Source of the DNA: Poseidonia sp.
Lineage (GTDB): Archaea > Thermoplasmatota > Poseidoniia > Poseidoniales > Poseidoniaceae
NCBI GenBank assembly: GCA_030827475.1
Contig: JAUREJ010000006.1
Span: forward strand, 4,024-68,023
Reading direction: 5' to 3'
Length of the DNA: 64,000 nucleotides
The stretch's first letter is position 1. The number at the start of each line of letters is the position of its first letter. Below, in pieces: positions 25,502 through 55,406 of the stretch. Made by a program: the position numbers and the translations under genes. The notes beneath the pieces were generated by a model that had not been told where the DNA came from, did not search any database, and saw nothing but the letters and a program-made list of their open reading frames with translations.

Positions 25502-25524
25502 GCTATGGTTACTGTTGTGGCTCA

Positions 25525-25549
25525 AAGGTGAAAGTATTTTCTTCTCCTT
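25525..25549 (-). terminator. Imperfect hairpin 27 nt downstream of the last island gene (possible operon terminator)
   Basis: AAGGTGAA-9 nt-TTCTCCTT (8 bp, one mismatch) lies between the convergent genes ending at 25481 (+) and 25576 (-). Confidence 0.2.
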
Positions 25550-25575
25550 GTGACAAATCTATTCAGTTGCTCTGG

Positions 25576-26319
25576 TTAATCTTTGAGTCCATCGAGAAAA
25601 TCATCGGTTAAATCATCAATGATTTTCTTACCTCGAGGCCACGCCCACCCGATTGCAGCAACCATGCCGAGCAACGGTGCATATCTGTATTGAAGTGCTT
25701 GACAGGCATCAGTTGTCCCTGCAAACATGTCCACTTGACTCAGCAATGCGCCTGCATCTTCTTCACAGGAGATGTTGATTAAAGCAACACCTGCAGATGG
25801 GACAATAGCTGCAATAGTGTAAACCATGATTGCTGTCGAAAGCAGCGTGCACCATGTTATCCGCTCTTTGCCGGGGTCGAGTAATTTCTTTTTGTTCTTC
25901 AATACCAACAACATTGGAACGGATAATGCTGTACAAAAGAGGAAAAATGGCCAGCCAAAAATTTCGGAAAATTGTGCAATCTCATCGGGGTTTGCGATCA
26001 GAATAGCAGAACCTCCCATGGCAATAAACAAGCCGGATGCGACGTTTCCAGTTCGAGCTAAGAAATAACATGAAAGAGGAGCAATGAACAGTTGTCCAGT
26101 AACGAAGACTGCAAGAATCCATTCAAGTCCAGTAGGAAGTCCCCAGTTCTCCATCGCTGACGCATAGGATGTTTGTTCAGTCAATGTATAGGCCATTCCA
26201 GGACAAATAATGGCAAGAGACAGGAGCCATTTTACTGGGTTGTTTCGAATATCACTCATCAACGAATCTTCTTCTGAAAAAGATTCTATGACATCATCTA
26301 AAATATATTCACTGCTCAT
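25576..26319 (-). CDS. Island gene 11: polytopic membrane protein (247 aa), unknown function
   Basis: About six hydrophobic segments. The ATG overlaps the stop of the upstream 976-aa gene by 1 nt (TAATG). AAAGGAGG lies 8 nt upstream of the start. Confidence 0.7.
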   Translation of the reverse strand: MSSEYILDDVIESFSEEDSLMSDIRNNPVKWLLSLAIICPGMAYTLTEQTSYASAMENWGLPTGLEWILAVFVTGQLFIAPLSCYFLARTGNVASGLFIAMGGSAILIANPDEIAQFSEIFGWPFFLFCTALSVPMLLVLKNKKKLLDPGKERITWCTLLSTAIMVYTIAAIVPSAGVALINISCEEDAGALLSQVDMFAGTTDACQALQYRYAPLLGMVAAIGWAWPRGKKIIDDLTDDFLDGLKD

Positions 26320-29249
26320 TACGATGCCTCCTTTTCGTTCTGCTCAGACATGTCTTCTTCAAGGAAGTTTTCAACTTCTTCAATCTCATCAACATCAAAT
26401 TCGACATACTCATCGAATCGAGCATCAGCAGATTTTGTCATTTCACGCTGTCGAATGAGCCCTCGCTTGAAGTAGTGGTCGGCATTCTCGTCTTTCTTTT
26501 TCGTCTTCGGTAGGAATTTAATCAATTCAATTCCATCATCGATGCCGAGATATTTGCCACCTTGTGACAATTTTCTTGCTCCAAATGCGATTAGGCCGCC
26601 ACCAACAAGACCGGTTCCGCCAACGGCTGCGGCAGTTTGAACTTCTTCCTTATCGAGGTCGATGTCTATTATTGACGTTGAATTCTCCTTCACTGGAACT
26701 TCTACTGGTACCTCTACTTCCACCTCGACTTCCACGATAACATCATCGTTGCATCCATCTCTGTCCTCATCGTTTTCTTCAGCAGCAAAAGTGTATGGGC
26801 ACTTGTCGCTATTCGATTGGTTTCTAGTATCAACTGGGATCGTATTGTTCACACCGTCCCCATCAATGTCGAAATCACATGCATCACCCATTGTGTCGTT
26901 GGTATCAGCATCGATATTTGTTTGCAACGGGTTCCAGATGAATACACAATTATCAAGCCTGTTGATGACACCGTCATTGTCTGAGTCGTTTGGATGAACT
27001 TCACATCCATCAATGAGACCATCTTCGTCTTCATCAATCGTGTCATCTGAACCAGGGCACCTGTCCAGACTGTTGATGACACCATCATCATCTAAGTCAT
27101 TATCTTGAACGATGTCATCTAAACATCCATCAAAATTGAGGTCCAACGAAGACGCATTTTCGTATGGACACAGGTCTTCACCAGTGCCATTGAATGGATT
27201 TGAATTGTTAATAAGATCTCCATCGATGTCACCGTCACATGAATCCCCTACGCCATCCTCATCAAAATCGAGTTGATTTGTGTTCGCTATGTACTGACAA
27301 TTATCAAAAACATCCTCTATAGAATCGCCATCTGTGTCATTTTCTGCGTGAATATAGGGGTACGCATCCAGAAGGTCAGGAACGCCATCACCATCGCTAT
27401 CATCGAGACACCCGTCCATGTTGTTATCAGAAAGTGATGCGTTTTCAAACGGACATTGGTCATTTCCTTGTCCGTCGTAGGGTACATTATTTGTTATACC
27501 GTCTCCATCGATATCGGTATCACACTCATCACCTTCGCCATCGCCGTTGTAATCTAGTTGGTTCTCATTCCAATTGTTTGGACAATTATCATTTTGATTT
27601 GCAATACCATCGCCATCAGTATCAGCTGACGCTTGCATGAATGCAAATGGGTCATTCCAGTCAGGAATACCGTCTGCATCAGTATCGTGTTGGAAAGTAA
27701 ACATCGTATACTGTTGACTTGATGCCTCTAGGCCGATGATGCTCGTGTGATATTGATTGTTTGAAATGATGAGTGGTCGTTCTTCAGAGATTTTTGGCAG
27801 CACACCAAGAATGTTCAATGTTGAAGTGTCAACGATACTTATTCTGGGGTCGAGCTCAATAATGCCAACTCGGATGTCATTTTCATCGTACACATCGATG
27901 GTTTCATTGTATGAGTAGTCCCAGTTGAGTACAAGTTGACGTGCAAGGTATTTTCCTTCGATGTATCCATCGGCTTCAAGGGCCCAAGCCAATCCTGTTT
28001 GCCGTGGAACAAATTGAAGTTTTTCTCCAAGTTCATGGTCGAGAATTGTCACGCCAGGGTCTCCGGCTCCTCCTTGGCTGTTGAACGTGAATGTCAATTT
28101 ATTTTCTTCATCAGCATGCACATCAAAGATCGTGTGTGCACGAGTGGGGTTCATGCTAAAATTTTCAGGGGCAGTTGAAACATAACTGTAATTATCTTGC
28201 CTGAAAAACCAACCTGTGGGGTGTTCTGTGGAGCCAGATTTTTCAATTCCCTCGCTCGAATTGAAGAGATAGGTTTGGCTGTTCCCATTCCATGCTTGAA
28301 TGCCGAGGAATACCTCTGTTCCAAAAGGATACACGATGACACCATCTTCGTAACCAAAGTTGTTGCATGGAGAATTAGCTTGGATGTCATTTTGTGGACA
28401 ATTATCTTCATGGTGAAGGATTTCACCAGTTATTGACATCACCATGAAATATGCATCCCCACTATAATCGCCCCGAACAACTTTGGAATTCTCAGTTACT
28501 GCTATTGATGAGAGTTGACCAGCCAAGAATATCTTGCGTTCTGTCCCAACATCACTAAACGCTACACTGTTAAACTTGATGTGTCCATACGTAGGGTCAG
28601 CATCCGATGTCATAATTTCTTTGACCCAAATTTTCGTTCCATTGCTCGCATGCATCATGACGACAAGACCTGCATCAACATCTTGGTATGGGTTGTGAAT
28701 TCGAGATCCGACTCCAAAATCGAAACAACCAGTGAATGAACCTGCGATAACAATTTTACTCTCGTCACTCGATAATGAAATATCCTTCATTTGAATTCTC
28801 GATTCATTTATGTTATTGTAATCGCTTGGAGAACAATAATTCCCACTTTTTGGAGTTGGAGCGAAAATCCAATCCCAATATCCTTCAGCATCCATCTTAG
28901 CAAGGACAAGTGATGAAGTGCCGTCTGCACGGTTGAGCCCGTTGTGGTGGTCAATCCATTCGGACCCAAGAATGAGTTTGTTCTTACTCAACACCCCTAC
29001 CATGTATGTGGAACCCTCACTATCAATGACTGATGATGTGACTTTGAAATCAGTATAGTATGAACCTGGTGTTCCAGTTGGGGTGATGAGTTGCATGACC
29101 TCAGTTGCAGTCTCGTCAAGTTGAGTATATGGTTCGGCGTGTGAATATGCCTGGCCGTTATTCACATCGTCGAGTGAAATATTGACAGACCAAGGCACTG
29201 ACATGAATGAACATAGAATCATCAAAACGAGAATCTTTACATTTTTCAT
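26319..29249 (-). CDS. Island gene 10: secreted 976-aa protein with N-terminal beta-rich region, thrombospondin type-3 repeat array, (EV)n linker, TM anchor and acidic cytoplasmic tail
   Basis: Signal peptide MKNVKILVLMILCSFMSVPWS. There are many DxDxDGxxDxxDxC repeats (DTDADGIPDWND, DTDGDGIANQNDNCP, DTDIDGDGITN, DSDGDGVPD, DTDGDSIEDVFDNCQ, DGDIDGDLIN, DSDNDGVINRLDNCV, DFDIDGDGVNN). The linker is VIVEVEVEVEVPVEVPV and the TM is AAAVGGTGLVGGGLIAFGA. GAGGAGGAA lies upstream of the ATG. Confidence 0.85.
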   Translation of the reverse strand: MKNVKILVLMILCSFMSVPWSVNISLDDVNNGQAYSHAEPYTQLDETATEVMQLITPTGTPGSYYTDFKVTSSVIDSEGSTYMVGVLSKNKLILGSEWIDHHNGLNRADGTSSLVLAKMDAEGYWDWIFAPTPKSGNYCSPSDYNNINESRIQMKDISLSSDESKIVIAGSFTGCFDFGVGSRIHNPYQDVDAGLVVMMHASNGTKIWVKEIMTSDADPTYGHIKFNSVAFSDVGTERKIFLAGQLSSIAVTENSKVVRGDYSGDAYFMVMSITGEILHHEDNCPQNDIQANSPCNNFGYEDGVIVYPFGTEVFLGIQAWNGNSQTYLFNSSEGIEKSGSTEHPTGWFFRQDNYSYVSTAPENFSMNPTRAHTIFDVHADEENKLTFTFNSQGGAGDPGVTILDHELGEKLQFVPRQTGLAWALEADGYIEGKYLARQLVLNWDYSYNETIDVYDENDIRVGIIELDPRISIVDTSTLNILGVLPKISEERPLIISNNQYHTSIIGLEASSQQYTMFTFQHDTDADGIPDWNDPFAFMQASADTDGDGIANQNDNCPNNWNENQLDYNGDGEGDECDTDIDGDGITNNVPYDGQGNDQCPFENASLSDNNMDGCLDDSDGDGVPDLLDAYPYIHAENDTDGDSIEDVFDNCQYIANTNQLDFDEDGVGDSCDGDIDGDLINNSNPFNGTGEDLCPYENASSLDLNFDGCLDDIVQDNDLDDDGVINSLDRCPGSDDTIDEDEDGLIDGCEVHPNDSDNDGVINRLDNCVFIWNPLQTNIDADTNDTMGDACDFDIDGDGVNNTIPVDTRNQSNSDKCPYTFAAEENDEDRDGCNDDVIVEVEVEVEVPVEVPVKENSTSIIDIDLDKEEVQTAAAVGGTGLVGGGLIAFGARKLSQGGKYLGIDDGIELIKFLPKTKKKDENADHYFKRGLIRQREMTKSADARFDEYVEFDVDEIEEVENFLEEDMSEQNEKEAS
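26735..27690 (-). repeat. Coding array of thrombospondin type-3-like Ca-binding repeats inside the 976-aa gene
   Basis: Boundaries located by back-translating HDTDADGIPDW (about 27690) and ENDEDRDGCNDDV (about 26735). Confidence 0.75.
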
Positions 29250-29347
29250 ACATTTTCCTCCTCAATATGTGTTATGTGTCTCACAGCAAATGGTCTAAAC
29301 AGCCTCTTTGTTGTTCTTTTCTTGGTATGTAATTGAGATGTCATCAT
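29246..29347 (-). CDS. Candidate 33-aa basic micro-ORF bridging the 922-aa and 976-aa genes
   Basis: Hand translation gives MMTSQLHTKKRTTKRLFRPFAVRHITHIEEENV. Its ATG directly abuts the TGA of the 922-aa gene (TGAATG). Its TGA overlaps the ATG of the 976-aa gene (ATGA). It is below the 60-aa cutoff of the ORF track. Confidence 0.3.
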   Translation of the reverse strand: MMTSQLHTKKRTTKRLFRPFAVRHITHIEEENV

Positions 29348-32116
29348 TCATTCACCTTGATCGATTTGATTTAATTTCAACCAGCCTTCATATGCAAGCA
29401 TTTTCCCATTCGGCAATCCTGCCAAATCATCACTTGCCTTAACTTCACTCTGCAGAACACTTGATGGTGATTCTCTGTGAAGCCATTTCCACTGCATTTG
29501 TGGCTTACCATCATCAATTGGCATTCGGATTGATGTTGGGTCGACAAGAACTGGTCCAACTTTGAACGTAGGTGCAATCTTTGCCATTGATTCCTCCCAA
29601 TGTTCCCTCAGAAGGATAATCTCTTTTTGCGGCAGGAATCCGCTGGTCAAATGAAGTGCAGATTGTGGATGCAAGAGCAGTGTCAAGAAAATATCAGTTT
29701 CAGGTAGGACATCCAGTGTGTTATCGAATGAAAGGAAATCATGGTCAATCGACTGGTCTGATTCAGGAATCGGTGCACCAGATTCATCGATTGGGAACAC
29801 TGTGTAGAATCTTGTGTAGTCATCATCAATGAAATATCCTAGTAATCCATCGATTTCTCTTTCTATACTTCCCAATTTGACTTGGAAAGCATGCTTACGT
29901 TGTGATTCACTTAACTGCGTCCATCCACCTTCAACTTGAAGACGAAGAAGTGCACGAACAACAGCAACTGGTCGACCCATGTAAAATGAAGGATGATTAA
30001 TGCCTCCTTTACCAAATGGGTCTGAATGCCAATATGTCGTATCAATGGCACGTAATAAAGCTGACAAAACACCCTCCCCAGAGTTTTCGAGATTTCTTTC
30101 CTGTTCGTCGATTCTTCCAACATCCATCAAAGAGTTGATAATCCTGTCAAGGTGCTTATTTCCACAATCTGGAGCGGTTCCTGCAGCAGAAAAGTTTCCT
30201 GGATTATTGTCCCATGCAAGTTGCCCTTTTTGGATACCTCCAAGAGTCCAGTCACGGTCAGCTACACGAAGTTGTCCTCTTGCATTTCCTTCATTATCAA
30301 AGACCTCCATCGCCCATTCGATGTGATCGGGTAGGAGGTAGCCACAAATTGGTGATGCTACTAAATCACTGTTGAGCAGGGCGGCTGTTCCACCCGTAGC
30401 TGGTAGCGTGTCATCGTCGTGAGCAAGCAATCTGAAATCCAGTCTTGACGGTTTGGGAATCCGTGGTCGGATGACAATTTTTCCAGACTCATCGCTGTAG
30501 TTTTGTAAACTTAAACCGACACTTACTTTTGGAGGTTGGCCGCTATCAAAATTGAGAAGGCCTTCCGGTCGAATTTCGCGGAGGTTACCAAAGGCATCCA
30601 CAATTTTCAGTTCAACGATTTCGACGAGACCTGCTCGAATAGGATGCGTCTCAGATAACTGGTTGATTTTATTATCAAGTCCGCTCAGTGTTATGGATAA
30701 GAGGTCACGCTGTTTGAAATCATAGACCAGTTGTTCGAGCATGTCTTCTTCTGTAACATCGAGAACCCCATTTTGATCTTCATCAAGTTCGTTTTCATCT
30801 TTGAGAAATTTGTTGATTTGCGAAACGACCACATTTGGGGCACTTCGGGTGATTGGTAAGCGTTCGGTGATGATGATTGCTTCATCCTCATTGGCTTGAA
30901 TAGTTTCATTTCCACTTGTTCGCTGGTAATCCACACCCTTCAATTCCCAGTTTTCTTTATCAGGATAAAATTTGAATCTGATATCTGCAAAAAGTGGCAG
31001 CCATGCCTGTTTCCACTGTTGATACGCAATTGGTGAAGGTAAACTGCTTCGCAGTCCCCTAACAGAATAACCGCCTAAGTTGAATAATTTCTTGATTGAA
31101 GCGTAGTCTCCTTCGCAGTCCTCCAAGAAACGCATTTCATCGTATAATGCATCAATTTCTAATGGCATCCATAAACGGTTTTGTGTAAATGTCAATGTCC
31201 TATTTGTTTCACCAATGAGCCGATTAATATCTGCAATTGTCCGAATTTTTGTGAGCCCCTCAGGATGATAATATCCCTCCTCCAAAGCTTTTGTCGAACG
31301 CAATTGGTCTGAAAGAAGTAAAACGGGGTCGCGTGGTTCAAAATATCTTGGAGCAGGGTAAGCGGTAACTTTTGGTATTTGTTTCTCTTTAAGCCCAAAT
31401 GCAAGTTGATGATTCTTGGCAAACTGCATTCTGTCTTGATTAAATCCTTGCTGGGCAAAGTTTTGTATCTGCTGACCGAGAGGTGCTTGTTGTTGTGCGT
31501 ATTGGTGTGCTGTTGATACTTCGTTTCCCCGCCGATTTTTCGTTGGTTCGAACCGCTTCTCTTCTTCTTTCACATAATCAAAGAGGATGCCACCATCAAT
31601 GGCGTGAAATGATTCCTTGTGTATTTCATGTTCAAATCGATATTCTCCATCTGCTGTATCGAGTTCACCAAGCAAATCGTGTGTGAAACCAACAAAGAAT
31701 TTCTCGAATTCTTGTCGCTCCTCTTCCGAAACACCTGCATTATTTTCAGCGAGTTCGGATGAAATAAGGGCAGCTAATGCCTCTTCTTGATTAACGCCAA
31801 TGGCTGCATCTAACTCATAAGCATCATTGTTTTCAATAGGATGACCCCACTTGACATTACATACGGCACCGTGGAACAATGTGTGCCTTGGCCAATGTTC
31901 GCCAATGGTGTCAATTGCCGCTCGCACCATGAGGCTGGAATCTATGGCTGTCGCCCCAGCGCCAATATTGATAGCATCGCTCGAATACTTGCTTGACTCC
32001 GACGTTTTGTTTTTTCCAGTCACCTCTTTTTGTTTGCCTTCTTTTCGGGGAAGGATTGATTTCTTTTCGCGTCCAACGTTGTTCTTGTCTGGGGAAATTG
32101 ATGTATCCTTTTTCAC
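29348..32116 (-). CDS. Island gene 9: 922-aa protein, no recognisable domain
   Basis: The GTG start overlaps the upstream stop (GTGA). AAGGTGG lies about 9 nt upstream. The N-terminus is basic and disordered-looking (KKDTSISPDKNNVGREKKSILPRKEGKQKE). No signal peptide. Confidence 0.8.
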   Translation of the reverse strand: MKKDTSISPDKNNVGREKKSILPRKEGKQKEVTGKNKTSESSKYSSDAINIGAGATAIDSSLMVRAAIDTIGEHWPRHTLFHGAVCNVKWGHPIENNDAYELDAAIGVNQEEALAALISSELAENNAGVSEEERQEFEKFFVGFTHDLLGELDTADGEYRFEHEIHKESFHAIDGGILFDYVKEEEKRFEPTKNRRGNEVSTAHQYAQQQAPLGQQIQNFAQQGFNQDRMQFAKNHQLAFGLKEKQIPKVTAYPAPRYFEPRDPVLLLSDQLRSTKALEEGYYHPEGLTKIRTIADINRLIGETNRTLTFTQNRLWMPLEIDALYDEMRFLEDCEGDYASIKKLFNLGGYSVRGLRSSLPSPIAYQQWKQAWLPLFADIRFKFYPDKENWELKGVDYQRTSGNETIQANEDEAIIITERLPITRSAPNVVVSQINKFLKDENELDEDQNGVLDVTEEDMLEQLVYDFKQRDLLSITLSGLDNKINQLSETHPIRAGLVEIVELKIVDAFGNLREIRPEGLLNFDSGQPPKVSVGLSLQNYSDESGKIVIRPRIPKPSRLDFRLLAHDDDTLPATGGTAALLNSDLVASPICGYLLPDHIEWAMEVFDNEGNARGQLRVADRDWTLGGIQKGQLAWDNNPGNFSAAGTAPDCGNKHLDRIINSLMDVGRIDEQERNLENSGEGVLSALLRAIDTTYWHSDPFGKGGINHPSFYMGRPVAVVRALLRLQVEGGWTQLSESQRKHAFQVKLGSIEREIDGLLGYFIDDDYTRFYTVFPIDESGAPIPESDQSIDHDFLSFDNTLDVLPETDIFLTLLLHPQSALHLTSGFLPQKEIILLREHWEESMAKIAPTFKVGPVLVDPTSIRMPIDDGKPQMQWKWLHRESPSSVLQSEVKASDDLAGLPNGKMLAYEGWLKLNQIDQGE

Positions 32117-33492
32117 TTTTCAGCACCACCTTTCTGTTGGTTCATCACGTGTGTAAGAAGCGTTTCCCAATTGGTTGGATCATCGTCAATGTCAGAGCGT
32201 TTGACGTCCCAGCGCAAATCATCTCTCATTTTTGAAAACCATACTTCCTCGGATTCATGTGCTTCCATGTATGCAGGGTCAGAGGACTCATCAGTGAACC
32301 AGCCACATACGAGATAATCAAATGTTGCCGTCGTATCTTGGGATAGTGTGTCATGGAATCCAAACCTACCTTTGGAATTGTCATATGTCGCAGTCCAGTG
32401 CATATCACCCGTCTCGGGTCCGATAGCAGTCATTTCTGGTATCGATGGATCTCGTTTTGTAGGAGTGAAATTATTCAGTGTCGAAACTTCCAATGTGACA
32501 GAATCCACCACCCATGCTTTTACGAGTGGTTCATTTTTTGTTGAGTTTACCACTTTACCGGGAGCAGTTATGTCGTCCACTTTTTTCCTTCGAATTATAA
32601 CCCATAAATCTGGTAGGTATGGAAACTTCAATGTCTCGTTCAGCGGTTTAACATCATCTGTTTCGGTTGTAAACTCCACCCTGTTACGAATAGCATCTTC
32701 AAATGAAATTGGATGTTGAAACTTCTCTTCTGTTGATATAAATTCCGGAGGTACATTGCCATCTGTTTCTTTGTACTCAAATTCATTCATCACATCCTCT
32801 TTTTCGAGTAATTCACCCTCAAGTAATGCTCGAGGGGGTTTCCAAAACAGATGAACGCCCGGCTCTAATCCTCCAGTTGATGGATTGTTTGGGGTGTATG
32901 TGAATGCATCAGGTAACCTCCAATCAGATGTGCCATGGTCTTCTTCGCCTTCCCTTTGAATGAAATGCGTTTTCAATGGTGCTCTCTTGTCATAAAGCAT
33001 GAAAAGTTTGTTTAGGTTTTTATCCTGTTCAATCCTAATGGCCTTGGTGTATGGGACAACAAGGGCTTGCACATCGATTGGAACAAGTAAATGACGCCGC
33101 CTCTCTAAATGTGTTTGAAATGCTGCGTCAATGATTTTATTGTCAAATTTCGCATCATGTTTCATTCCTTTCTCTGGTTGGTCGATGATTTTGCCAGCTT
33201 TTACCTCTTTCACAACCGGCGTTGCGTCTTTACCTGTGACGATTTTCTCTTCTGAAACAACTGTATCTGTCTTCCAAATGCCATCGGCATTCGTCTTCGT
33301 TGATGAGGTTTCTTCGACCTGTTTTGATGTTGAAGTGTTGGATTTAACTTTTGATGCAGTGGATGTGATAGATGCTTTCGTAGGAGTTGACGGAATGTCA
33401 GTTTTGTTTGGTGTATTTGACTGGGAAGCGATGTTTTTGACACTGTCTGCTGCTGTTTTGTTGGCAACAGGGTTTTTCTTTCGCTTAGCCAT
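32113..33492 (-). CDS. Island gene 8: 459-aa protein with Lys/Ser/Thr-rich N-terminal third, otherwise unassigned
   Basis: Start moved to ATG 33492, 1 nt after the upstream TAA and preceded by GGTGGTGA. The N-terminal 100 aa or so are low complexity (KTAADSVKNIASQSNTPNKTDIPSTPTKASITSTASKVKSNTSTSK). Confidence 0.8.
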   Translation of the reverse strand: MAKRKKNPVANKTAADSVKNIASQSNTPNKTDIPSTPTKASITSTASKVKSNTSTSKQVEETSSTKTNADGIWKTDTVVSEEKIVTGKDATPVVKEVKAGKIIDQPEKGMKHDAKFDNKIIDAAFQTHLERRRHLLVPIDVQALVVPYTKAIRIEQDKNLNKLFMLYDKRAPLKTHFIQREGEEDHGTSDWRLPDAFTYTPNNPSTGGLEPGVHLFWKPPRALLEGELLEKEDVMNEFEYKETDGNVPPEFISTEEKFQHPISFEDAIRNRVEFTTETDDVKPLNETLKFPYLPDLWVIIRRKKVDDITAPGKVVNSTKNEPLVKAWVVDSVTLEVSTLNNFTPTKRDPSIPEMTAIGPETGDMHWTATYDNSKGRFGFHDTLSQDTTATFDYLVCGWFTDESSDPAYMEAHESEEVWFSKMRDDLRWDVKRSDIDDDPTNWETLLTHVMNQQKGGAEK

Positions 33493-33493
33493 C

Positions 33494-34924
33494 TTATTCA
33501 CCACCACTGCTCGGTCGATTGATCACAGAAGAATCCTCCACCCTTATTGCATCGACATTGACGATTGATTCGTTTTGGCTATCAATGATTGGTTGTTGTC
33601 GAATTGAATCATAAACGAAGTCTTGTTGATATGGAAATTGCATAAGTTGTGTTGCAACGAATCCACCTTTCTCCAAGTTTGGAATGGACACCGAAGTAGT
33701 AGATTTATTTACCCAATCATTTCCGAACTTGAAATCTCGCATTCGAAGGACTGAAACATCACCGGTGCCTGCGCGGACGCTGATTCTAATTGTTTTGTCA
33801 TCTTCAATCATACCATCTCTATTTTTGTATTTGACGTATAATTTTGGGTCAATTTTTCCTCCGCCTTTGTCTTGTTTTTCAAGCCCTAATCGGATACCTT
33901 CTGAGGGTTCTTTCATTCGCAAATGTGTGGGTACACCGTTGAAAATACAAAGAAGAATTGTCTCTGAGAGTCGTGCGACACGAATGAGGTCTACCGCCCT
34001 ACCTTCATCAAAACCTTCTTCACGCCGTTCGCCAACACATTCAGGAGCATCATAGGCTTGAATTTCAAGCCCAGGGTAATCTCGAACGATAGTTGAGCGC
34101 ATCAAAAACCCCGTGAGTAGCCCACCTCGAATCATCGTCATTTGAGATAAAATACCACTCATTTTCGCTGTTAGTTCACTTTGAACGTCTCGAGAAATTT
34201 CAATTTGTTTCTTTAAAAAATCATGATTATTTTGAGAGAGCATGGGTTCTAGTTGGGTGGGTGATTTCGTATTCTCTTTGTCTTCTCCAGCGAGATATGT
34301 GTTCGATTTTGTTTGTTGAACACTGGTGGCTTTTTGTTTCGATGCAGATGTTGTTGTTGCTGAATCTTCGCTTTTTGCAACACCCATGACGGCATTACTC
34401 ATTGAACGCTGTTGCTCTGGAATTTTCGAGATTTCTTGTTCTACTCGTTGTTTAAAATTTTGGTTTGCTATTGAAACCGCATCTTCAAAAACACTCCTGT
34501 TCAATGCTCTAGCCTTATCATGAGCGGCTAATGCCGTTCGAAATGGATTCATAATCAATTCTTGTTCATTGAGAGCCTCCATGAGTTCGATGTAAAGTTC
34601 CCCTCGCTTCTCTGGGTCAACATCAGCTAATGCTCCTCTTGAATCCAATACACCTGTACTCAAGGCACCATCGATCATAGCATCGATCCAGTTTCGGTCA
34701 ATATGGAAAAATCTGATCGAATCATTTGGAAGCATTTCTTCATGAGGCACAATGTAAGGAAAGGGAACGCCCACAAGCGTACGGAGCTGCCCAAGCCATT
34801 CGATGATAAAATTCCATGCAGCCTCTTCAGCATCATCTGTGGTTGTTCTTGACATTCCCTTTACAAACCATGGAACAACAACGCGTGTGTGATATTCGCT
34901 CATCGTCGTATCACCTTCGGTCAT
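33494..34924 (-). CDS. Island gene 7: 476-aa protein, no recognisable domain
   Basis: ATGA overlap with the upstream gene. GAGGTGG lies 6 nt upstream. No signal peptide. The central segment is S/T/K-rich. Confidence 0.8.
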   Translation of the reverse strand: MTEGDTTMSEYHTRVVVPWFVKGMSRTTTDDAEEAAWNFIIEWLGQLRTLVGVPFPYIVPHEEMLPNDSIRFFHIDRNWIDAMIDGALSTGVLDSRGALADVDPEKRGELYIELMEALNEQELIMNPFRTALAAHDKARALNRSVFEDAVSIANQNFKQRVEQEISKIPEQQRSMSNAVMGVAKSEDSATTTSASKQKATSVQQTKSNTYLAGEDKENTKSPTQLEPMLSQNNHDFLKKQIEISRDVQSELTAKMSGILSQMTMIRGGLLTGFLMRSTIVRDYPGLEIQAYDAPECVGERREEGFDEGRAVDLIRVARLSETILLCIFNGVPTHLRMKEPSEGIRLGLEKQDKGGGKIDPKLYVKYKNRDGMIEDDKTIRISVRAGTGDVSVLRMRDFKFGNDWVNKSTTSVSIPNLEKGGFVATQLMQFPYQQDFVYDSIRQQPIIDSQNESIVNVDAIRVEDSSVINRPSSGGE

Positions 34925-36606
34925 AACTGGCCACCTCGCGTGTATGCTTCTTGGACTCGAAGGTTTTCTTGGAGCATTGTGTTTTCATCAAATTGTAATC
35001 GTTCTAATGAGAGTTTATCAAGGAAATCATCTGTTGTACCATCGGGTGGAAGAGGCACTTCATTGTGAAATCTCAAATCTGGTGGAACTTCTTTCAGAGG
35101 TAACGCGGTCTCTTTGACAATCGCCTTTTGTAAAATAGATTGAAGGGGTAACTTATCTACGCTTTCGATATCATATTTTTTAGAAAGGTGTGATTTATCA
35201 AGAAAGTTTTTTCTGTAAAGTTGGAGGGATTTTTTCTTTAATCGTAATCGTCTCCATCGACTAAGTGTCTCAATAAATTTAGGGTCACTTAATGCAAGCA
35301 ATCGACCGAGTTCAAATGCTGAGGAATGATGAATGACATCCAATCCTGTTGATGGTTCAAGTCCTCTTGCATCGTCTGAGTTCGTGTAAGGCTCTTCCTT
35401 GATATCGTGATATGTCGGTACTGCGATGCAAGGCCCTCTATACAAACACGGTCTTGTGATGCCGTCGTGTTCAACAATATCTGTGTAAAGGAAGGAGTTT
35501 ACAGTGACATCAGGATCCATGTCTGAACCCAGGAGAGCGGGTTCATATGTTCGTTGTTCACCATCTTCAAGGCTGAAACCTGCTAGGGAGTCAAGGTCGC
35601 CCACTTTGTCTTTGTCTGCGAGCGATTGACGGAATTTTATTGCCTTGATTTTCGATTCAAAATCACCGCCGTCCCCTGTATTAAACGTCCAATAATCGAG
35701 AAGAATTAATTTTACATCATCGGTTGATTTTAAATTTTGAATGGATTGAAAAGTCTCAGGTATGTGAAGTGGGAATTGAATTGGATGAGATGTTATGCGA
35801 TGAACACCATGATCAAGACCAACTTTCAAATCAATTTTTTGACCTTGTTTTTCTATCATCTGTGGATTTTCCTCGATGTCTTGAGTCAGAATTTGAACAG
35901 CATCTTCTATTGGTAAACTCGAAGCGTGCCCTTCTATAGAAACTAAACACGCATGATACTTTGTATTGATTTCACTCGGTAAACGATTGGAAATTATCAC
36001 GGAAAAGATTCCATCTTCATCATTCCCACACAACTCTTTGTCTTTTGGGTTGACTTGAAGGGCATGTGCAAGGTAGGGGAGGTCGTGAGCTGTAGGTCCA
36101 ATGTTTTTCAATAAACCCTCTTTGATTGAAAGAACTCGTATTTCAAATGGAATATTTGAGTTGCCTTTACCTGGAATTGTGTATTGTTTTTGACCCTCAA
36201 GAATTTCGCAACAATTCTCAAATTCATCATCGCGAATTAGGAGTAAACTCATCCAAGGACAGTTATCATAGTGCTCTTCATCGTTTACTTTCCTTTCCCA
36301 TGGAAGTGTTTTACTTTGAAAAACAATCTTTGGAATTGATAGGTCGACCTTTACGCCTTGTTCATTTTTTGGTGGAGTTCTCGAATGTATTGTAAGTGGG
36401 TCAATTTGATATGGGGAGCCTTCGATTTGAATGTATTCGTTTTTTGTAATCTCTTCGGGTAAATTTGTATTGACACCTTTGACTGAAGTAGGGAATGTTT
36501 GTTTGGTTTCGACCAAAAATTTCCCTTGCGTCAATGGAGGTTTGATCGAGTCAAAGTAACGTATTGTACCTACATCTGGACTTGGTGGTATTGGTTGTAT
36601 TGTCAT
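34921..36606 (-). CDS. Island gene 6: 561-aa protein, no recognisable domain
   Basis: Start moved to ATG 36606 (MTIQPIPP...), 1 nt after the TGA of the 660-aa gene and preceded by AAGAGGCGATGAA. The longer ORF-track start would overlap the upstream gene by 56 nt. Confidence 0.8.
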   Translation of the reverse strand: MTIQPIPPSPDVGTIRYFDSIKPPLTQGKFLVETKQTFPTSVKGVNTNLPEEITKNEYIQIEGSPYQIDPLTIHSRTPPKNEQGVKVDLSIPKIVFQSKTLPWERKVNDEEHYDNCPWMSLLLIRDDEFENCCEILEGQKQYTIPGKGNSNIPFEIRVLSIKEGLLKNIGPTAHDLPYLAHALQVNPKDKELCGNDEDGIFSVIISNRLPSEINTKYHACLVSIEGHASSLPIEDAVQILTQDIEENPQMIEKQGQKIDLKVGLDHGVHRITSHPIQFPLHIPETFQSIQNLKSTDDVKLILLDYWTFNTGDGGDFESKIKAIKFRQSLADKDKVGDLDSLAGFSLEDGEQRTYEPALLGSDMDPDVTVNSFLYTDIVEHDGITRPCLYRGPCIAVPTYHDIKEEPYTNSDDARGLEPSTGLDVIHHSSAFELGRLLALSDPKFIETLSRWRRLRLKKKSLQLYRKNFLDKSHLSKKYDIESVDKLPLQSILQKAIVKETALPLKEVPPDLRFHNEVPLPPDGTTDDFLDKLSLERLQFDENTMLQENLRVQEAYTRGGQL

Positions 36607-36607
36607 T

Positions 36608-38590
36608 TCATCGCCTCTTTCTTTTTGCCTTTGTTTGTTGGCGGTTGTTTGGGGAAGTTTCATTCGATTTCGATGATTGATTTAGCGAGGATTGGCTATC
36701 GATACTTAACCCATCAGAAGTTGAAGGGAATTGGATGCTTACTTCTGTATTCCTGAGAGTTGATGTATCCGACTTCTTTTCTGATGTCATTTGTTGTGTT
36801 TCTCCGCCAATCTTGAGGTTTGGTTTCCAGTATGGCGCACGATTCAAGATTTTTTCTTTCACTTCAATTTCAAGAACAGCATCAGATGAAAGCCCGCCTG
36901 TGTCCGTGACCCTTAACACACAATGATGGATGCCAACATCTTCAGTTGAAGGCGTACCGGCAATCAACCCTGCTTCTGTGATAAGAAGCCAATCAGGTGA
37001 AGAAACAAAGGTGAACTTGTGTGTGTCACCTTCATCATCATCCCCGACAAAAATCGAAAGGTCAAATTGAAACGCCTCACCTGTCGTTGCAACAGTAGGA
37101 GGCAAACGAGGTAATTCATCAGGAATTTCAACCTGAGGTTGATGAGTTTTGACTTCAACAACCGGTTCGGGTGGTGGTATGATTGGTTTAGGTTGTAGTG
37201 GTATGACAACAGGTTGAACAAATTCCTTCGCTTGTTTTGACGTAGAACTTAGTGTTGAAGATTTACTCATCGTTAAATTCAATTTCATTTCTTGCAAATT
37301 CTTAACTTGGTCGAGTATATTTGGTGAATGCTTCCACATAATCTTTGAACTGCCTTCGAAAGAGAGTGGGCCTTCGTGAACGAGGTGAATCCATTTTTGT
37401 TCTTGGAGGAGATCTAACACATGTTGTGGATGTGCTGCAAAAGCCATGAGTGAATTGACATCTGTCGTCTCGTCAGTAAGAATGTCAATGATTGCAGGAC
37501 CTTTGAATCCATCAATTGCCTGTACTTGCCATATGTAAGCAACTGCATCACTCCTTTTAATGGCAAGGGGGTCTTTTATCGGTGTCACGCCTTCCATGGC
37601 AATTTTGATGTTTGGAGTTTCACCTGGTAACGTTCGAACAATTGCCACAAGCGTTTGGAATGATGATCCACAGTAAAATCGAAGGTTGTCAATTTTTGCT
37701 AATACTTCTCCTGCAGAGAACGATGAGGTTTCTTCCATTGTTCGCTTTGAAGCAGATTCTTGTGACTGAATGTAACATCCTCTGCCTAGGTATCGATAAA
37801 GTCCAATTTGATGTATGGTGCTTAACCGTTGGAAACCGACTGATGGGAATGTTTGGGAGGCGAATTTAGAGGTAATTGAACTGCTTGAGATTTCGACATT
37901 CCCGTAATCGAGATGTTTACCTCCAAGGCCTTCGGCGGTGAAAGACTTTGTACCGAGGGGCACTTCTATTTCCACTAGATTTTCCTGTGGAGGTATTTCG
38001 AGGTCTTGCAGAATTCCACCAGCACCACGATGGAATGTAATTCGTACTGCTTGGTCACTTTGTATTGACAGAACGGGTGCATGGGCGAATTTCTCGTTTG
38101 AATACTCTTCTTGAAGTGCCCAAATTTGTCGTAGTCCGGGAATAAGTACTGCACCCTCGGATTGTATTGCTGTGGTCTGTTGTAACCGGTAACTATGGTT
38201 CTCTATAGAATGGCCTATCATGGATGGTGAAGGTTTTGTTTCGGTTGACTTTTTCCGCTCTTTGACAGGGACTTCGCCGACAAAGACAAGTGAATCATGA
38301 TGGTGAGATGAGACTTGCACCCGTGGGAGTTGTTCAGCATCAGGAATGTGTTGAACAGATGTCGTGCGTTGCTCTACCGCCTCGACATTCATTGTTTCCC
38401 CTGTACTAAGGACATTCACCAACTGAGGTGTGAGGGATGCAAGACCAGGTTGAATCGGTTGAGGTTGAATTTTTTTGACCACACTTTGCTTTTCCATAGC
38501 GTGTTCAACACCTATGCCTGCATACATTGACATGATCCTTGGAGGGGACCTCCTTTGGAGCAATCTTCGTTGATTGTTCGATGGTTTCAT
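36608..38590 (-). CDS. Island gene 5: 660-aa protein with one He_PIG / dystroglycan-cadherin-like Ig domain and a basic S/K-rich C-terminus
   Basis: ATGA overlap with the 2057-aa gene, with GGGGGTGA upstream. The segment TGEAFQFDLSIFVGDDDEGDTHKFTFVSSPDWLLITEAGLIAGTPSTEDVGIHHCVLRVTDTGGLSSDAVLEIEV fits the putative-Ig (LP.GL..d..tG.isGTP) pattern. Confidence 0.8.
   Translation of the reverse strand: MKPSNNQRRLLQRRSPPRIMSMYAGIGVEHAMEKQSVVKKIQPQPIQPGLASLTPQLVNVLSTGETMNVEAVEQRTTSVQHIPDAEQLPRVQVSSHHHDSLVFVGEVPVKERKKSTETKPSPSMIGHSIENHSYRLQQTTAIQSEGAVLIPGLRQIWALQEEYSNEKFAHAPVLSIQSDQAVRITFHRGAGGILQDLEIPPQENLVEIEVPLGTKSFTAEGLGGKHLDYGNVEISSSSITSKFASQTFPSVGFQRLSTIHQIGLYRYLGRGCYIQSQESASKRTMEETSSFSAGEVLAKIDNLRFYCGSSFQTLVAIVRTLPGETPNIKIAMEGVTPIKDPLAIKRSDAVAYIWQVQAIDGFKGPAIIDILTDETTDVNSLMAFAAHPQHVLDLLQEQKWIHLVHEGPLSFEGSSKIMWKHSPNILDQVKNLQEMKLNLTMSKSSTLSSTSKQAKEFVQPVVIPLQPKPIIPPPEPVVEVKTHQPQVEIPDELPRLPPTVATTGEAFQFDLSIFVGDDDEGDTHKFTFVSSPDWLLITEAGLIAGTPSTEDVGIHHCVLRVTDTGGLSSDAVLEIEVKEKILNRAPYWKPNLKIGGETQQMTSEKKSDTSTLRNTEVSIQFPSTSDGLSIDSQSSLNQSSKSNETSPNNRQQTKAKRKRR
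36860..37090 (-). other. He_PIG / cadherin-like Ig domain coding segment
   Basis: Located by back-translating HKFTFVSSPDWLLITEAGLI at 36961..37020. Confidence 0.6.
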
Positions 38591-41500
38591 CGCATCACCC
38601 CCGTTGTATTCGAAACTCGACTGATATCCCCCTTATTGGCGCCTTTCATTTGAAGATTCAAGTTTGCCGGAGCCGTTGTTGTGAACTTTGAATTCGCACC
38701 ATTGGAGACCTGCATTGTAGAACTTGATGCAGTAGGATATGTTCGAGTTGTTGCAGATGGTGTCTTTCGAACTGCACTTTGCTCGATTTGGTTTGAATTG
38801 AATCGTTGAATTGCTTCCAATTCTTCCATTCGCACAAAGTCTTCTGGGGTCATAATTTTCGAATGCTTTCTTTCAATTTCGTCAATTCGAACATCTTTCT
38901 TTAGTTCTAGTCTTAGCTTCTCTTCTTTTTGAGGTTTTGAACCACTGGATTGCTCGATATATCTTCGGAATGGTAGGTTGTGGACAAATTGTGATTTTTC
39001 GATTTGATTAATCGCCATCGTCTTCAACCATCCCTGAGGCTGTGCAACCGCCCTGAAAAGAGATGAACTACCAGAGAGGAATCGTGGCTGTTGAGGGCTT
39101 GGTGATTTCTTTGCTTTAGGTCGACCATTTGCATCTAAATCACAACGCCAGAGCGTTTCAGGGAAGAATGATGAATGACTAATGAATGAAATGCCATTTG
39201 GGAGTTGTACAGAAGAACCTTCCATTCCTGTGATATAAATCGAAAATGTTGGTTCTACATCATCTTCGATACCACATGGAGCGAGTTGAATATTGTCGAG
39301 TGTTTCTTCATTACGTTCCCTCCAACCAGAATCTATCTCAGAATACCCGTCTATTTGGTTCCATGTGTGCATTGCATGGTATTTTGCAGGGAAGAGGTGT
39401 TGGTGTGTAAGTTCAAACTCTGGCTCAACAACAAATGGTTTGTTCATCGAACCATCACCTTCCTCTCCATCATCGGGTCGGACGACTCCGCTCGGAATTT
39501 GTGAAGTAAATTGGCGTTCTGTGAATTTTTGGGAAAGTGAGGTGCTGTGTTCGGATTCAGGTAATTGCAATACATGTTTGTTGATGAATTCAGGCATGCC
39601 AATGGCTTTGAATGCTCTTGAACTATTTGCACCAAAACTAACCGTGAAGGAGATGATGTACCATTCAATTCGAGCTTTTCCACGCATCTTTGGTCCTTCA
39701 ATTTCCAAATCAGCACCCAAAGAAGCTTTCACAGTTCCGAGCCATGTTTTGTAGCGAACTGAAAGGCCGATATAGACTCGGAAACTGTAATAGAATGGAT
39801 CGAACACAACTAAAACATCCACGCCAGCTTTGAATGACGCCGTTAATGAACCCGATTTGAAACTAGCCTCGAATCCACCGCCTAGCATTACTGCTGACGT
39901 ACATACTGTGAAGTATGCACCACCTTTAATCGTCAATTTTGACATGGGTTTCCAACTAAAACCGAGTCGCGGGACAACTGGATAGTAACTTGGTGCCTTG
40001 AATTTTGGATGGTATCCTCCAAGAGACAAGAGGAATTCACCCCGCTTAAACCAACTAACGAGCGCAAAACCACCCGTAAGTCGACAACTCTTGTGGAATA
40101 AATACGATGCATCTGTGAGTTGAGCCTCAACCCAAAGCAACTGTTCCTGTGAATCAAAGTATGCCAAGAAGGCGAGTTCAACGTAGCCAATACCCAGTTC
40201 TTTTGTTGGTAGCGACATTGATGATAAACCAAGGATACCAATTGTGACACCATTTGATAACTTAACGAAGAGGACTCCTTTTGTTTCAAGCACCTGATAT
40301 GTGGTGAATTTCACCCCTATTGCAAACCATAGACTGTCTCGCTTCGCTGGTAAATCTGTGCGTATTTGTTCAAGTGCTCCCATCGGGTCATCTGCAAATC
40401 CTGAAAGTGTTCGCATGAAGATGCTGTTCGGGACATCAGCGACTTTTGGAACGACAAGGTCGCGATTGAGTCCCAAACCACCGGCGAGTCCAGTGACGAA
40501 AAATTCAGGAATACCACCTAGAGGATAGTCGATTGCAGCAATAACGAAACATGTTACATAAGAACCGTCGGTGCTAGGGATTCGTCCAAATGCACCAATC
40601 GCAGAAATGGATATTGTTGAGGTGCTAATCGTGCAAAGTCCTTGATATTCGATATACTTCTCATTGTCTCCACCACCCGGTACATCAAGTTCTTCTTTTC
40701 GAAGGGCCCCTGCAATTTTGAATGCTGGCCCGCTGTAAGCAAGAGCGCAACCCGCCATGTCATATTTCCATTCGCTGAAGTTGAGAGGCCGGAGAATTGG
40801 TATCGTTACGGACAAATCATCGACTTGTGCCAAAAATCCTGCAATTTCTGCCTCTCCATCGACAAGAATTTTCAAAGACGAATTATCATCAGCTGCAGTA
40901 ATTTTCACGCCGATTTGTGCAATCTTGATTGGACCAAACTGCTTGTTGATGACAAACCATGTTTCAAGTGACCCTGCGACATCAAAATCAACGGGATAAC
41001 CATCATATTTCATGACAGCCAAGTCGAACAATGGTTTGACATTACCGCTTCCTTCGCCATTTCCTGCGAGTACACCTGCAGCGAGTCCATTCCCTCCATC
41101 TTCCTTTCCATCTCCACCGAGTGAAATGCCAAAGTCGTCAAGGTCAAGTCGGCCACCTGCAATGAATCGTTTGGTGGCATCAGTTTCAGTAAATGTCATG
41201 TCGATGACGGTCGTTATACGAACAGCGTTGAGAAGGAGGAATGCATCCAAGAGTGGTTTGCGATCTAATTTAGTAAGCAACATCGAGAGGTACCCGATTT
41301 CAATGCTGAGGAATGGTTGGATGATGAGATTATGTTCGTCTAATGAATACTTTAAGAATTGAATATTGAGGCCGGGAACATATGTTTTCCCTGCACTACT
41401 AGGAACAATTGGTGTCGTGACATCATCAGATGTTCCGATGGTTAACAACAGCCCACCGATTTGGAGTTCTGTGTCTTGAAGGACATCGATACAAATGCCA

Positions 41501-44500
41501 ACAAGACTGAATCCCGTTGAGCCTTCCTCGTCCATAATTGTGAGTGACACTTCAAACAGGTCATCTCCTTCCGATCCACTTGAATCAGATGTTGTGGATT
41601 TTCGTTGATAGGTGAAGAGTTTGATTTTGTTTAAACTTTGAGAGGCTCTTTGAATACAAAAATGAACCATTTCAACGGCACCCTCAAGCAAAACATCGGT
41701 GGCTTTTCGAGGTTCAGTTGGAGTGTAATCTGATACAATTTGTTGAATTGAACGTATCGTGTATGTTCCCTGTGTGCCGCTTGCTGGTGCTGCAATATTC
41801 TCATTAGGATCATCTCCCCAAACATAGGCTTTCAAGTGTACAAGCCAATTACCTAAGATTGTCAATTCTTTAAACAAGACATTGTCGCCATCGTACAGTG
41901 GTGTATTGAGCACGTCTTGTACTGCTTGAAGATTTGAAAGAAAATCTAGAGCAGAATTTGCAGCACCGAGTGCTAATGCACCAAGATTTGGTAGACCCCA
42001 TCGAGTATCTTGAATCCACGGTGTTGAGTTCGGCAGCACCTTTGCCCAAAATGCGTTGACACCATCTCCTGTTTCTGGCATCATATCGGGATTGAGTTTT
42101 GAACTGATGTCCAATGTCAAGTTGCCTCCGCTTAATGAAAAGTGAATGCCAGGTTGAATTTGAAGTGGTGATTGAATGATGGGCAAATTTGTATATGTGT
42201 TCACAGAGACGAACGGCTCAAAGTCATGACCTGCAAATGGCAAACATGCCCCGAGTTCAGAATCAATCGTTAACGAAAGACCAGATGTCGCATCGAGAAT
42301 GATGTCATTTGAATACATGAGCCAAATTGCAAGGCAATCTGAATCTCTTCGCCCAAAGCACAATACTGCAGGGTCATACCACTCCCCAGTTGAATTCGTC
42401 AATGTGACTTCATACCTTTCATTTTGAGAATCATAGTTGATCGTAAAGAAATTGTTGACGGAATCTGGAATGGCGTGTCGGATGTGGCCACCAATTGCAA
42501 AAACGAATGCTCCAAGGCGTTGTTGATTGAAATAGGACTGAACATCTCCGCTACAGAGCTTTAGGTTGTCCATTTGGATTTGATTTGAATCCCAAAAGTC
42601 AATACTGGTAAGAAGGTCGATTAAGATTGATGAAACAGTGTGTTGAACTCCATTCTCGGTGTAGACGACATCTGTTAATGATAGGATAAATTCTGTGATA
42701 AAGATAGGAAGAATATTGTCTACGAAGTCTGCTAATATGTGTCGAAGGAACGCATTTACACCAGAGAGTGAAGGGAGAAGTTGTATCACAGAAGGAGATG
42801 AACTATCTGCTGGATTGAAATCGACTTCAAACGAGAGATTCACTTGATTATTCATCATGCCAAACCGAATCGTGAGTGTTGATGTTGCGAACAATCCGAT
42901 GAAATCTGCTAATGATTGGTTTCCAAGATTGGTAGGCAAGACTGAACCAATGTCGTATGTAAGTATACTTTGACTTCCATTCAAGTCGAAGGTTCCAGCG
43001 GGGTGCATCGTCAAAATGAGTTCTATTGAAGCATTGAGAGATGGTACACCAAAGAGTGAATCAGGAGTGCGAATTTTGAGTGAGAGCGAACCAGGAGCAA
43101 TTGGAGATTCACAAATTTCAATTTCAAATGCAATGGATTCTGCAATCCCAAGACCAATCACAACAGATGTAATCATCGAAGTTTCGTCACCAGGTACTTC
43201 ATATTCGACTACCATTTCTACAGGGAACAATGACAAAATTGCATGCGATAAATTCATCATTGTCTCCATATCAAAGACTGCTCCGTCATACAATGCATCT
43301 CTAAAATGTGCTTGAGGGTCAACGAATATGCCAAAGAGTGACCGTGAAGCCAAGGCCCAGTCTGAGGTACGCTGTGCAAGGTTGAGTTCGACAAATATTG
43401 TCGCAAGAGGTGAATCAGGTGAGAATTTTCGTAAAAATAATCTTTCGACTAAAAGTTGCAAGATATTATCCAAAAGGAGCCCTGGAATCATTGGGAGAAG
43501 GTTGTTTTGAACATCGGAGGCATCAAGTAAATCAATCGACGTTGGCGGATTCGTATTCCATTGAAGTCCACTTGAGTTGATCCATGGCAAAGTTGGCAGT
43601 GAAGGTAAATCAAGGTGCAGTGAGAATGAGGGTTGGATGCCCATCGTCATAGAGGCCCCTTGGAACATCCCTAAACTAGCGACATCAGCGGTCAGTGTGA
43701 GTTCAACATTGAAATGCTCGAACCAAACTTCAGGCTCAAAGAGTGGGATTTGGACAAATGCACTCAAGTCAAGCGGCCCGAGTGGGATGCCAACCATCCC
43801 AATCGATAAATCACCATACCGGCCAAGATTGACGTTGATTTGATACCCTTTGAACAACCCTGGTAATTTGAAATTGAGGTGGCCATCGAAAGGGTCATCT
43901 GGGTCATCAATATAGGTCATCCAAGGCGAAGATTCGGCTAAATGGTCGAACATTGCACGATTCGTTCTTGGTAATAATTTTCCAAAATCAATATCTCCGT
44001 TCGCGTTGGTCATCAAGTCCAAAATGTAAGCTTGAGGGTCTTGTACAAAGGTCAAAAGTGCTGGTCCATCGACCCACCAACGAAGTGTGCTATCTTGAGA
44101 CTGAGGGATGATCTCACTCATTGTCGTCTTGTACATGAGTCCTAACAGGTGCATTCCTTCAAAGAAGGCTTCCACCGCAGGGTTATCAATTTCAAGTGAG
44201 TATGTGGCCAAGAATGCATCAAGACATTCAACAGCACCTTCGAGAATAGTCTCTTGATTCAATACTATACGCCCTGGTATCGGAGCATCCCAATCCATGT
44301 GCCCCAGATATGAAGCATCGTTCAGGATGACTGACGTGTTCCATTCTTGTTGATTCCATGAAGCATCTACTTCTATAGAACGCAACCTATTGTCTTCTTC
44401 AGGGTGCCCAAATAGATATGTCTGGAAGTTGTTTTCATCTTGCTTCCACAACTCAGCTTGAAAGTGTACTGCCGGAGCTGGATGGGGTGGTTCGATTGCA

Positions 44501-44760: not shown

Positions 44761-44834
44761 GCCACAACCCCCAAACCTGTTATCGTTAGGTGACGTTCTC
44801 TTGAAAGTCTAGGGCTTGTGTACTCATCACTCAT
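44757..44834 (-). CDS. Candidate 25-aa micro-ORF immediately upstream of, and stop/start-overlapping, the 2057-aa gene
   Basis: Hand translation gives MSDEYTSPRLSRERHLTITGLGVVA. GGAGG (44847..44843) lies 8 nt upstream of ATG 44834. Its TGA overlaps the ATG of the 2057-aa gene (ATGA at 44757..44760). Confidence 0.35.
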   Translation of the reverse strand: MSDEYTSPRLSRERHLTITGLGVVA

Positions 44835-44872
44835 TATTCAATCCTCCTATTTTTCAAATACATGGCTAAATT

Positions 44873-55394: not shown

Positions 55395-55406
55395 GCCTCG
55401 CCCACC

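Follow-up and report, generated by a model that had tools for sequence, protein, structure and literature searches.

Five coupled genes of a Poseidonia island as a probable split-gene form of a DUF6603 cassette found in bacteria and archaea

What is encoded by five mid-sized genes that abut almost without gaps, each with a start signal of its own, and that hold a single curated domain among them? Such a run lies on the minus strand of contig JAUREJ010000006.1 of Poseidonia sp. (Archaea; Thermoplasmatota; Poseidoniales; assembly GCA_030827475.1), within a 64,000-nucleotide stretch (contig positions 4,024 to 68,023) that we call the window and in whose numbering all coordinates are given. We propose that these genes represent, in an archaeal version with split genes, the conserved partners of a giant bacterial protein that carries the domain DUF6603 (PF20248); taken as a whole, this is in our estimate the best explanation of the locus, with a probability of roughly 0.72.

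Five genes and their junctions

36608-38590, minus strand: gene of the 660-amino-acid (aa) protein, ATG start
34921-36606, minus strand: gene of the 561-aa protein, ATG start (longest open reading frame (ORF) 580 aa)
33494-34924, minus strand: gene of the 476-aa protein, ATG start
32113-33492, minus strand: gene of the 459-aa protein, ATG start (longest ORF 464 aa)
29348-32116, minus strand: gene of the 922-aa protein, GTG start

A first-pass annotation had described these genes as packed through ATGA, GTGA or 1-nt junctions, each with its own Shine-Dalgarno (SD) motif. Base-by-base reading confirms both positions and junctions: ATGA at 38587-38590 between the gene of an upstream 2057-aa protein and that of the 660-aa protein, a 1-nt gap at 36607 (660/561), ATGA at 34921-34924 (561/476), a 1-nt gap at 33493 (476/459) and GTGA at 32113-32116 (459/922). 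An SD-like 4-mer (GGTG, GAGG, AGGT or GGAG) occurs 4-18 nt 5' of all five starts; from its background rate (13% of minus-strand positions, 14% of internal in-frame ATG/GTG codons) the chance of finding one at every start is ~4e-5. Simple scans of the five proteins found no transmembrane (TM)-like segment, N-terminal hydrophobic leader or Walker A motif, and maximal 19-residue hydropathy is 0.78-1.50 (on the Kyte-Doolittle scale, not from a trained predictor), which indicates no TM helix or signal peptide. These scans agree with the annotation, which had seen no signal peptide, TM helix or nucleotide-binding motif. Its label 'orphan' does not fit: all five proteins have many homologs, and the word holds only in the sense that four of them are without a curated family.

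A cassette of giant proteins and their partners

Homologs of the 922-aa protein are archaeal at 50-99% identity and bacterial at 27-32% identity, the latter being ~1300 aa long. A pattern scan with one genome per species gave 192 relatives of this protein, and 80 loci were compared. The bacterial cassette consists of four abutting genes, A (3100-3600 aa, the size of bacterial DUF6603 proteins), B (~650 aa), C (~350 aa) and D (~1300 aa). Inside the giant A lie a lipase-like alpha/beta-hydrolase stretch and the DUF6603 domain, which is rich in beta structure; a tail of ~420 aa completes it. Wherever upstream DNA suffices, the order giant, B, C, D is constant. The DUF6603 gene is visible in 57 of the 80 loci, and matches by tblastn and profile were obtained for B in 63, C in 65 and D in 71-80; B as matched by tblastn stands invariably between the giant and C. 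Besides archaea, among them Marine Group II (Poseidoniales), the cassette is spread over about eight bacterial phyla; named carriers belong to the Actinomycetota, Pseudomonadota, Acidobacteriota, Gemmatimonadota, Myxococcota and Verrucomicrobiota.

The window shares this layout, in that a 2057-aa gene with PF20248 is followed by collinear homologs of the A tail, B, C and D, with -4, -1 or +1 junctions as in most loci; it differs from bacteria in having A in three genes, D in two and an archaeal host, in an NlpC/P60 gene placed inside the split A, and in an added He_PIG domain and basic disordered tails. The order DUF6603, 660, 561, 476, 459, 922 is the same in four Poseidoniales relatives at 23-86% protein identity, two of them only 23-43% identical. 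Coupling by -4/-1 junctions is likewise conserved across phyla, in most loci. A and B are fused in one locus (L077), B and C in 9 representative clusters, and C and D in P0113, so that for every pair of neighbours in the chain at least one lineage has a single polypeptide, which is classic evidence for a single physical and functional unit. An apparent C-D fusion in L060 was not counted, its C part being incomplete and distributed over three frames. Constant order in all loci with enough upstream DNA, conserved junction coupling and fusion of each adjacent pair show that the genes are inherited together as a conserved core, in partial support of the first-pass reading. None of the pieces belongs to some unrelated known family with a genomic distribution of its own.

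Judged by alignment and composition, the pieces in the window correspond to the bacterial proteins as follows.

48279..52952, minus strand: 1557-aa protein, the N-terminal third of giant A, with a C-terminal PGAP1-like alpha/beta-hydrolase stretch (GHSIGG)
38587..44760, minus strand: 2057-aa DUF6603 protein, the middle part of giant A
within 36608..38590, minus strand: A-tail, residues ~5-421 of the 660-aa protein, which in bacterial DUF6603 giants form the C-terminal tail domain and are detached here
36860-37105, minus strand: He_PIG (PF05345) immunoglobulin (Ig)-like domain, residues 496-577 of the 660-aa protein (Pfam E = 5.6e-8)
residues 576-660 of the 660-aa protein, minus strand: basic Ser/Thr-rich disordered tail, by composition
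34921..36606, minus strand: cassette protein B, the 561-aa protein, placed by tblastn collinearity and without a curated model
33494..34924, minus strand: cassette protein C, the 476-aa protein (alignment A2, 60 sequences)
32113..33492, minus strand: D-N, the 459-aa protein, the N-terminal domain of D after a basic Ser/Thr/Lys-rich disordered N-terminal tail
29348..32116, minus strand: D-C, the 922-aa protein, the rest of D and the most conserved of the five

The tail assignment holds in both directions: an archaea-only profile of the 660-aa protein matches 27 of 47 bacterial giants, ending a median of 7 residues short of their C-termini, and a bacteria-only profile of the giant tail matches residues 5-421 of the 660-aa protein with E = 1e-36. 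PF20248 covers residues 1271-1750 of the 2057-aa protein (E = 6.7e-122), whose DUF6603 region aligns with residues ~2000-2800 of bacterial giants, and residues 969-1440 of the 1557-aa protein align with giant residues ~784-1203. On these alignments, giant A is split in the Poseidoniales clade into pieces of 1557, 2057 and 660 aa. The hydrolase stretch is collinear and internal in two of the three complete bacterial giants scanned, at scores below Pfam's cut-offs, and this position argues that the lipase-like alpha/beta-hydrolase is probably an integral domain of the giant and not an exchangeable effector. He_PIG, which the first-pass annotation had placed at about 36860-37090, is indeed there, with 33.6 bits against a Pfam gathering cut-off of 24 bits. 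It is the sole curated domain among the five proteins and the only part of the 660-aa protein with relatives in the PDB, namely Ig-like domains of endofucoidanase and dystroglycan; the pieces of the giant, searched against the PDB as single sequences, gave nothing significant.

The second break lies in D, which is a single ORF of 1146-1568 aa in 54 bacterial loci. Profile-based local mapping of the split halves onto fused D places residues 128-441 of D-N at profile positions 29-256 and residues 34-918 of D-C at positions 294-1234. Modelled with AlphaFold2 from a 73-row alignment, a fused D from Actinoplanes (1164 aa) reached a predicted local distance difference test (pLDDT) score of 86 and a predicted template-modelling score (pTM) of 0.83; the one place near the break where confidence dips within the model is residues 280-283, in a linker of ~257-285. 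Because the break maps to this low-confidence linker, the archaeal cut between 459 and 922 aa falls, in the model, between two domains. In a tree of D (a quick search, unrooted, of uneven composition and with long branches), all ten split copies from archaea group in a single clade, with a Shimodaira-Hasegawa-like approximate likelihood ratio (SH-aLRT) support of 100, apart from the bacterial fused copies. In locus L083, from uncultured Alphaproteobacteria and nested among fused bacterial relatives, D was split independently at approximately the archaeal site. Phyla are mixed in the bacterial part of the tree, which points to inter-phylum transfer.

An exhaustive profile search of 1.84 billion proteins places the C family in 3,594 representative clusters at 50% identity; the 476-aa protein carries an archaeal low-complexity insert of ~90 residues (162-254). 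No Pfam, NCBIfam, PHROG or PADLOC match was found for B, C, D-N or D-C, no weak family recurs at E <= 1 in the alignments of C (60 members) or B (57), and profiles of C, B and D have no relative among PDB sequences. Foldseek gave no match at E <= 0.001 for the AlphaFold2 model of C (476 aa, pLDDT 70) in the PDB, or for the D model in the PDB and in BFVD, a library of viral predicted structures; the best PDB match of the D model has E = 0.18. Scattered Foldseek matches to Hcp and to Ig-like beta-sandwiches, with template-modelling (TM) scores < 0.2, were rejected as noise. Hidden paralogy among B, C and D was not found (hhalign probability <= 0.12%), and by profile comparison the three are mutually unrelated. 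Neither B, C and D nor the DUF6603 giant can be matched to a characterised protein or to any system so far described, and we found no open-access paper naming 'DUF6603' or 'PF20248'.

Island, transfer and accessory genes

The operon belongs to a metagenome-assembled genome of 1.8 Mb that is 87% complete, and comprises, in order, genes for a CBS-domain protein (501 aa) and proteins of 1557, 1140, 2057, 660, 561, 476, 459, 922, 976 and 247 aa. The surrounding features are these.

25512..54968, no strand: low-GC island of 29.5 kb, 43% GC vs 57% in the flanks
52939..54444, minus strand: 501-aa CBS-domain protein (Pfam CBS E = 3e-20), the first operon gene
44873..48295, minus strand: 1140-aa protein with NlpC/P60 and PG_binding_1 (Pfam), between the first two pieces of the split giant
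26319..29249, minus strand: 976-aa protein with signal peptide, TSP3 repeats and a C-terminal TM anchor, occupying the 'E slot' that abuts D
25576..26319, minus strand: 247-aa polytopic membrane protein, the last island gene

In the nearest relative, genome G034 (flank identity 83-84% nt), the flanks align to window positions 22418-25511 and 54969-58312 and are 640 bp apart, vs 29,457 bp here. Since they adjoin there with only a 640-bp spacer, the island is delimited as 25512-54968 and was inserted en bloc. The insertion spot (25481-25575, 54445-55406; G034:C2, L105 3088-3727) lies between a 345-aa gene and riboflavin genes and varies within the genus: from flank to flank it measures 0.5-8.6 kb in other relatives. 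Compared with genomes G006 and G012, nucleotide identity is 76-83% for island genes, whereas it is only 57-71% for the core flanking genes of the same pairs, with synonymous sites saturated; an island more alike than the core genes implies that it moved between Poseidoniales lineages. Of the 301 genomes of this order that were searched, 10 contained the C family, as did 5 of 26 genera; this genome has one copy. The cassette was gained by horizontal transfer, across the divide between bacteria and archaea.

The islands of G006, G012 and G058 likewise have the CBS-domain gene at their head. The slot of the 1140-aa gene is hypervariable, with 28% identity between islands whose other genes are 68-94% identical. 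Across loci the E slot holds Sortilin/BNR propellers, TSP3 repeats, HYDIN/ASH Ig-like domains, PG_binding_1 or a fucose lectin, and one E-slot protein combines the conflict-system domains CHAT and TCAD7. The propeller proteins (L047, L051, L057, L065, L070-L072, L093) are of BNR/Sortilin type, ~1000-1280 aa long and often with a single C-terminal TM segment. A C-terminal TM segment is present in 17 of 42 E-slot proteins; a signal peptide is mostly absent from the bacterial ones and present in the archaeal TSP3 protein. From these features the bacterial proteins may either be tail-anchored with a cytoplasmic bulk or be exported by another route. Bacterial neighbours include a weak M15 peptidase match and PG_binding.

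In relatives the 247-aa protein keeps an identity of 89-94%, also where that of core genes drops to 23-43%; on contig C16 of G011 (L013+L014), for example, it is 89% identical next to a core cassette at 23-43%. Modular recombination could account for this pattern, as could a host-side gene travelling with different cassette versions. The new ends created by fission carry Ser/Thr/Lys-rich disordered segments with net charge +5 to +8 (36608-36865, 33175-33492, 31925-32116). In the 476-aa protein a like segment is internal and near-neutral (net -1, 34163-34441), and the TSP3 membrane protein has an acidic cytoplasmic tail (net -8); judging by composition, basic tails and acidic tail could possibly form an electrostatic tether. 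The 114 distal flank ORFs of bacterial loci are mainly housekeeping, with a handful of MADS, AriA or PtuA-type genes, a number for which there is no baseline. In three loci MADS genes (mad3 with E = 1e-52, mad8, mad1) stand a few kb downstream of the cassette (alignment A6).

Assembly, possible function and alternatives

We envisage that coupled translation would make the pieces in fixed ratios and that they would then join up again as a single large A-B-C-D complex, in the cytoplasm, since export signals are absent from all of them. The products of the five genes very probably assemble together, and a single co-assembled A-B-C-D complex is, at the level of genome comparison, well supported. 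With much less confidence, the complex may act at the membrane or cell envelope through its lipase-like hydrolase and DUF6603 domain, with specificity conferred by the neighbouring membrane-anchored binding protein and the variable cell-wall-hydrolase-like subunit. Action at the membrane or envelope is suggested by the lipase-like domain, the Gly/hydrophobic beta-rich DUF6603, the membrane-anchored partner and the murein-directed-like subunits (NlpC/P60 and PG_binding) in a murein-free archaeon; the surface-type domains of the E slot also support it. Archaea are known to kill bacteria with peptidoglycan (PG) hydrolases, most of them (68%) without a signal peptide (PMC12352652), and a preprint reports a bactericidal archaeal alpha/beta hydrolase (bioRxiv 10.64898/2026.06.10.730825).

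Among possible functions, we place a weapon against neighbouring bacteria at somewhat short of even odds, self-directed anti-virus defence at an appreciably smaller chance, and leave the rest to some other function. It is tempting to speculate that the locus encodes a membrane-attacking particle of a new kind, large and cytoplasmically assembled, which Poseidoniales, the most abundant archaea of the surface ocean, took from bacteria and use against bacteria, and in which the archaeal split marks module boundaries; as a complete picture this is tentative and less likely than not. Several observations weigh against our reading of the locus. The hydrolase matches of both the 1557-aa protein and the giants fall below Pfam's cut-offs, and the NlpC/P60 match is partial (profile positions 2-62 of 105); by eye, its catalytic Cys is kept in DCSGF, and its catalytic His looks replaced, the usual 'HVGIY' motif reading 'QVDFV'. 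Family libraries and simple scans found no export signal in the core proteins, and no ATPase or recognisable secretion part, which leaves a weapon's exit from the cell unexplained. The bacterial E-slot proteins, with their C-terminal TM segments and mostly no signal peptide, fit an intracellular site better; tail-anchored proteins of this sort suggest such a site, as expected for a role in defence.

The least probable of the alternatives is that a bacterial cassette broke up after its transfer into archaea and that the five ORFs are its decaying pseudogene remnants. Genes that are single in bacteria do appear here as several ORFs, and one close relative, locus L024 (JAYQHX010000017.1), has many frame breaks. 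L024, however, is 98.8% identical to the intact locus L017, and 21 of its 28 frameshifting indels lie in homopolymers on a contig named as long-read polished, which argues for assembly error and not decay; it is the only frameshifted close relative found. The first-pass annotation had named such degradation in close relatives as a sign against its own proposal. The cassette genes of L024 would be mis-called as pseudogenes. Compared with G006 and G012, the ratio of nonsynonymous to synonymous substitution rates (dN/dS) is 0.07-0.19 for all five genes: they are under purifying selection and functional. The split layout has also been kept over a deep archaeal clade (branch lengths 0.5-1.3), the breaks fall at domain boundaries, and every piece has its own start codon, SD-like motif and coupled junction, all of which makes decay extremely improbable.

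More weight attaches to intracellular abortive-infection defence, in which a cytoplasmic sensor-effector at the inner face of the membrane would destroy the cell's own membrane on infection. The sporadic distribution in the order, horizontal transfer across phyla and domains, the hypervariable slot, core proteins without export signal, the tail-anchored look of leaderless bacterial E-slot proteins, the joining of CHAT and TCAD7 in one of them and the few MADS, AriA or PtuA-type genes in flanks are all in keeping with it. Yet none of nine operon proteins has a PADLOC match (PADLOC-DB 2.0, E <= 0.01), the mostly housekeeping distal flanks form no evident defence island, and in a murein-free archaeon it is not obvious what a PG-binding/NlpC-P60 subunit and a signal-peptide TSP3 protein would do inside the cell; at > 8,000 residues the system would also be large for defence, if not unprecedented. 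We regard this role as unlikely. Less likely still, and by a good deal, is the proposal of the first-pass annotation, that these genes supply a secretion or contractile-injection machine with its structural or chaperone core. Tight coupling, mid-sized products without leaders and hydrolase-bearing neighbours speak for it, as do several sub-threshold matches of the 476-aa model to Hcp-type tubes (E 0.65-3.5, TM-score < 0.2). Against this, searches of Pfam, NCBIfam and PHROGs with the operon proteins found no sheath, tube, baseplate, spike, ATPase or secretin family, nor the contractile-injection, type VI secretion system (T6SS) or phage-tail families gp25, gp6, VgrG and AAA+ ATPase, and the PHROG 'tail' matches of the operon are solely to the NlpC/P60 domain. 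The lack of any recurrent weak family in 60 C and 57 B members and of significant Foldseek matches for the C and D models points the same way, and none of the five is a membrane protein.

The split-gene reading of the five genes, which we prefer, can also be set beside known systems. Tc (ABC) toxins have very large leaderless subunits, abutting genes, variable enzyme-bearing parts and a horizontal spread. The likeness to them is in concept only: subunit number and sizes differ, TcA, TcB, SpvB, RHS and YD families were not detected in the operon (Pfam, NCBIfam), and the D model has no fold match to the PDB. With extracellular contractile injection systems and T6SS the locus shares a coupled operon of structural-type genes next to hydrolase-type proteins, and archaeal PG hydrolases that lack signal peptides have been proposed as cargo for such machines (PMC12352652); here sheath, tube, baseplate and ATPase families are lacking and the C and D models show no significant structural similarity. 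The published archaeal Woldo and Danwoldo PG hydrolases and the alpha/beta hydrolase cinquedea offer a parallel for a murein-free archaeon with NlpC/P60 plus PG_binding and a lipase-like stretch; those are, however, single secreted proteins with Tat or Sec signals, whereas the domains here reside in leaderless cassette subunits of 1140 and 1557 aa.

A widespread system of > 8,000 residues per copy that lacks a literature is a real knowledge gap. New here are the fission map of Poseidoniales, a set of fusions for each junction, an empty site, evidence of selection and a confident D fold without a match, together with transfer across domains and between Poseidoniales species. The archaeal form is a natural dissection, in which giant and D are cut at domain boundaries with coupling kept, and it shows where constructs should be cut and which pieces should bind one another. 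For the biology of the Poseidoniales, transfer and a murein-hydrolase-like subunit in a murein-free host make antagonism between archaea and bacteria a testable hypothesis.

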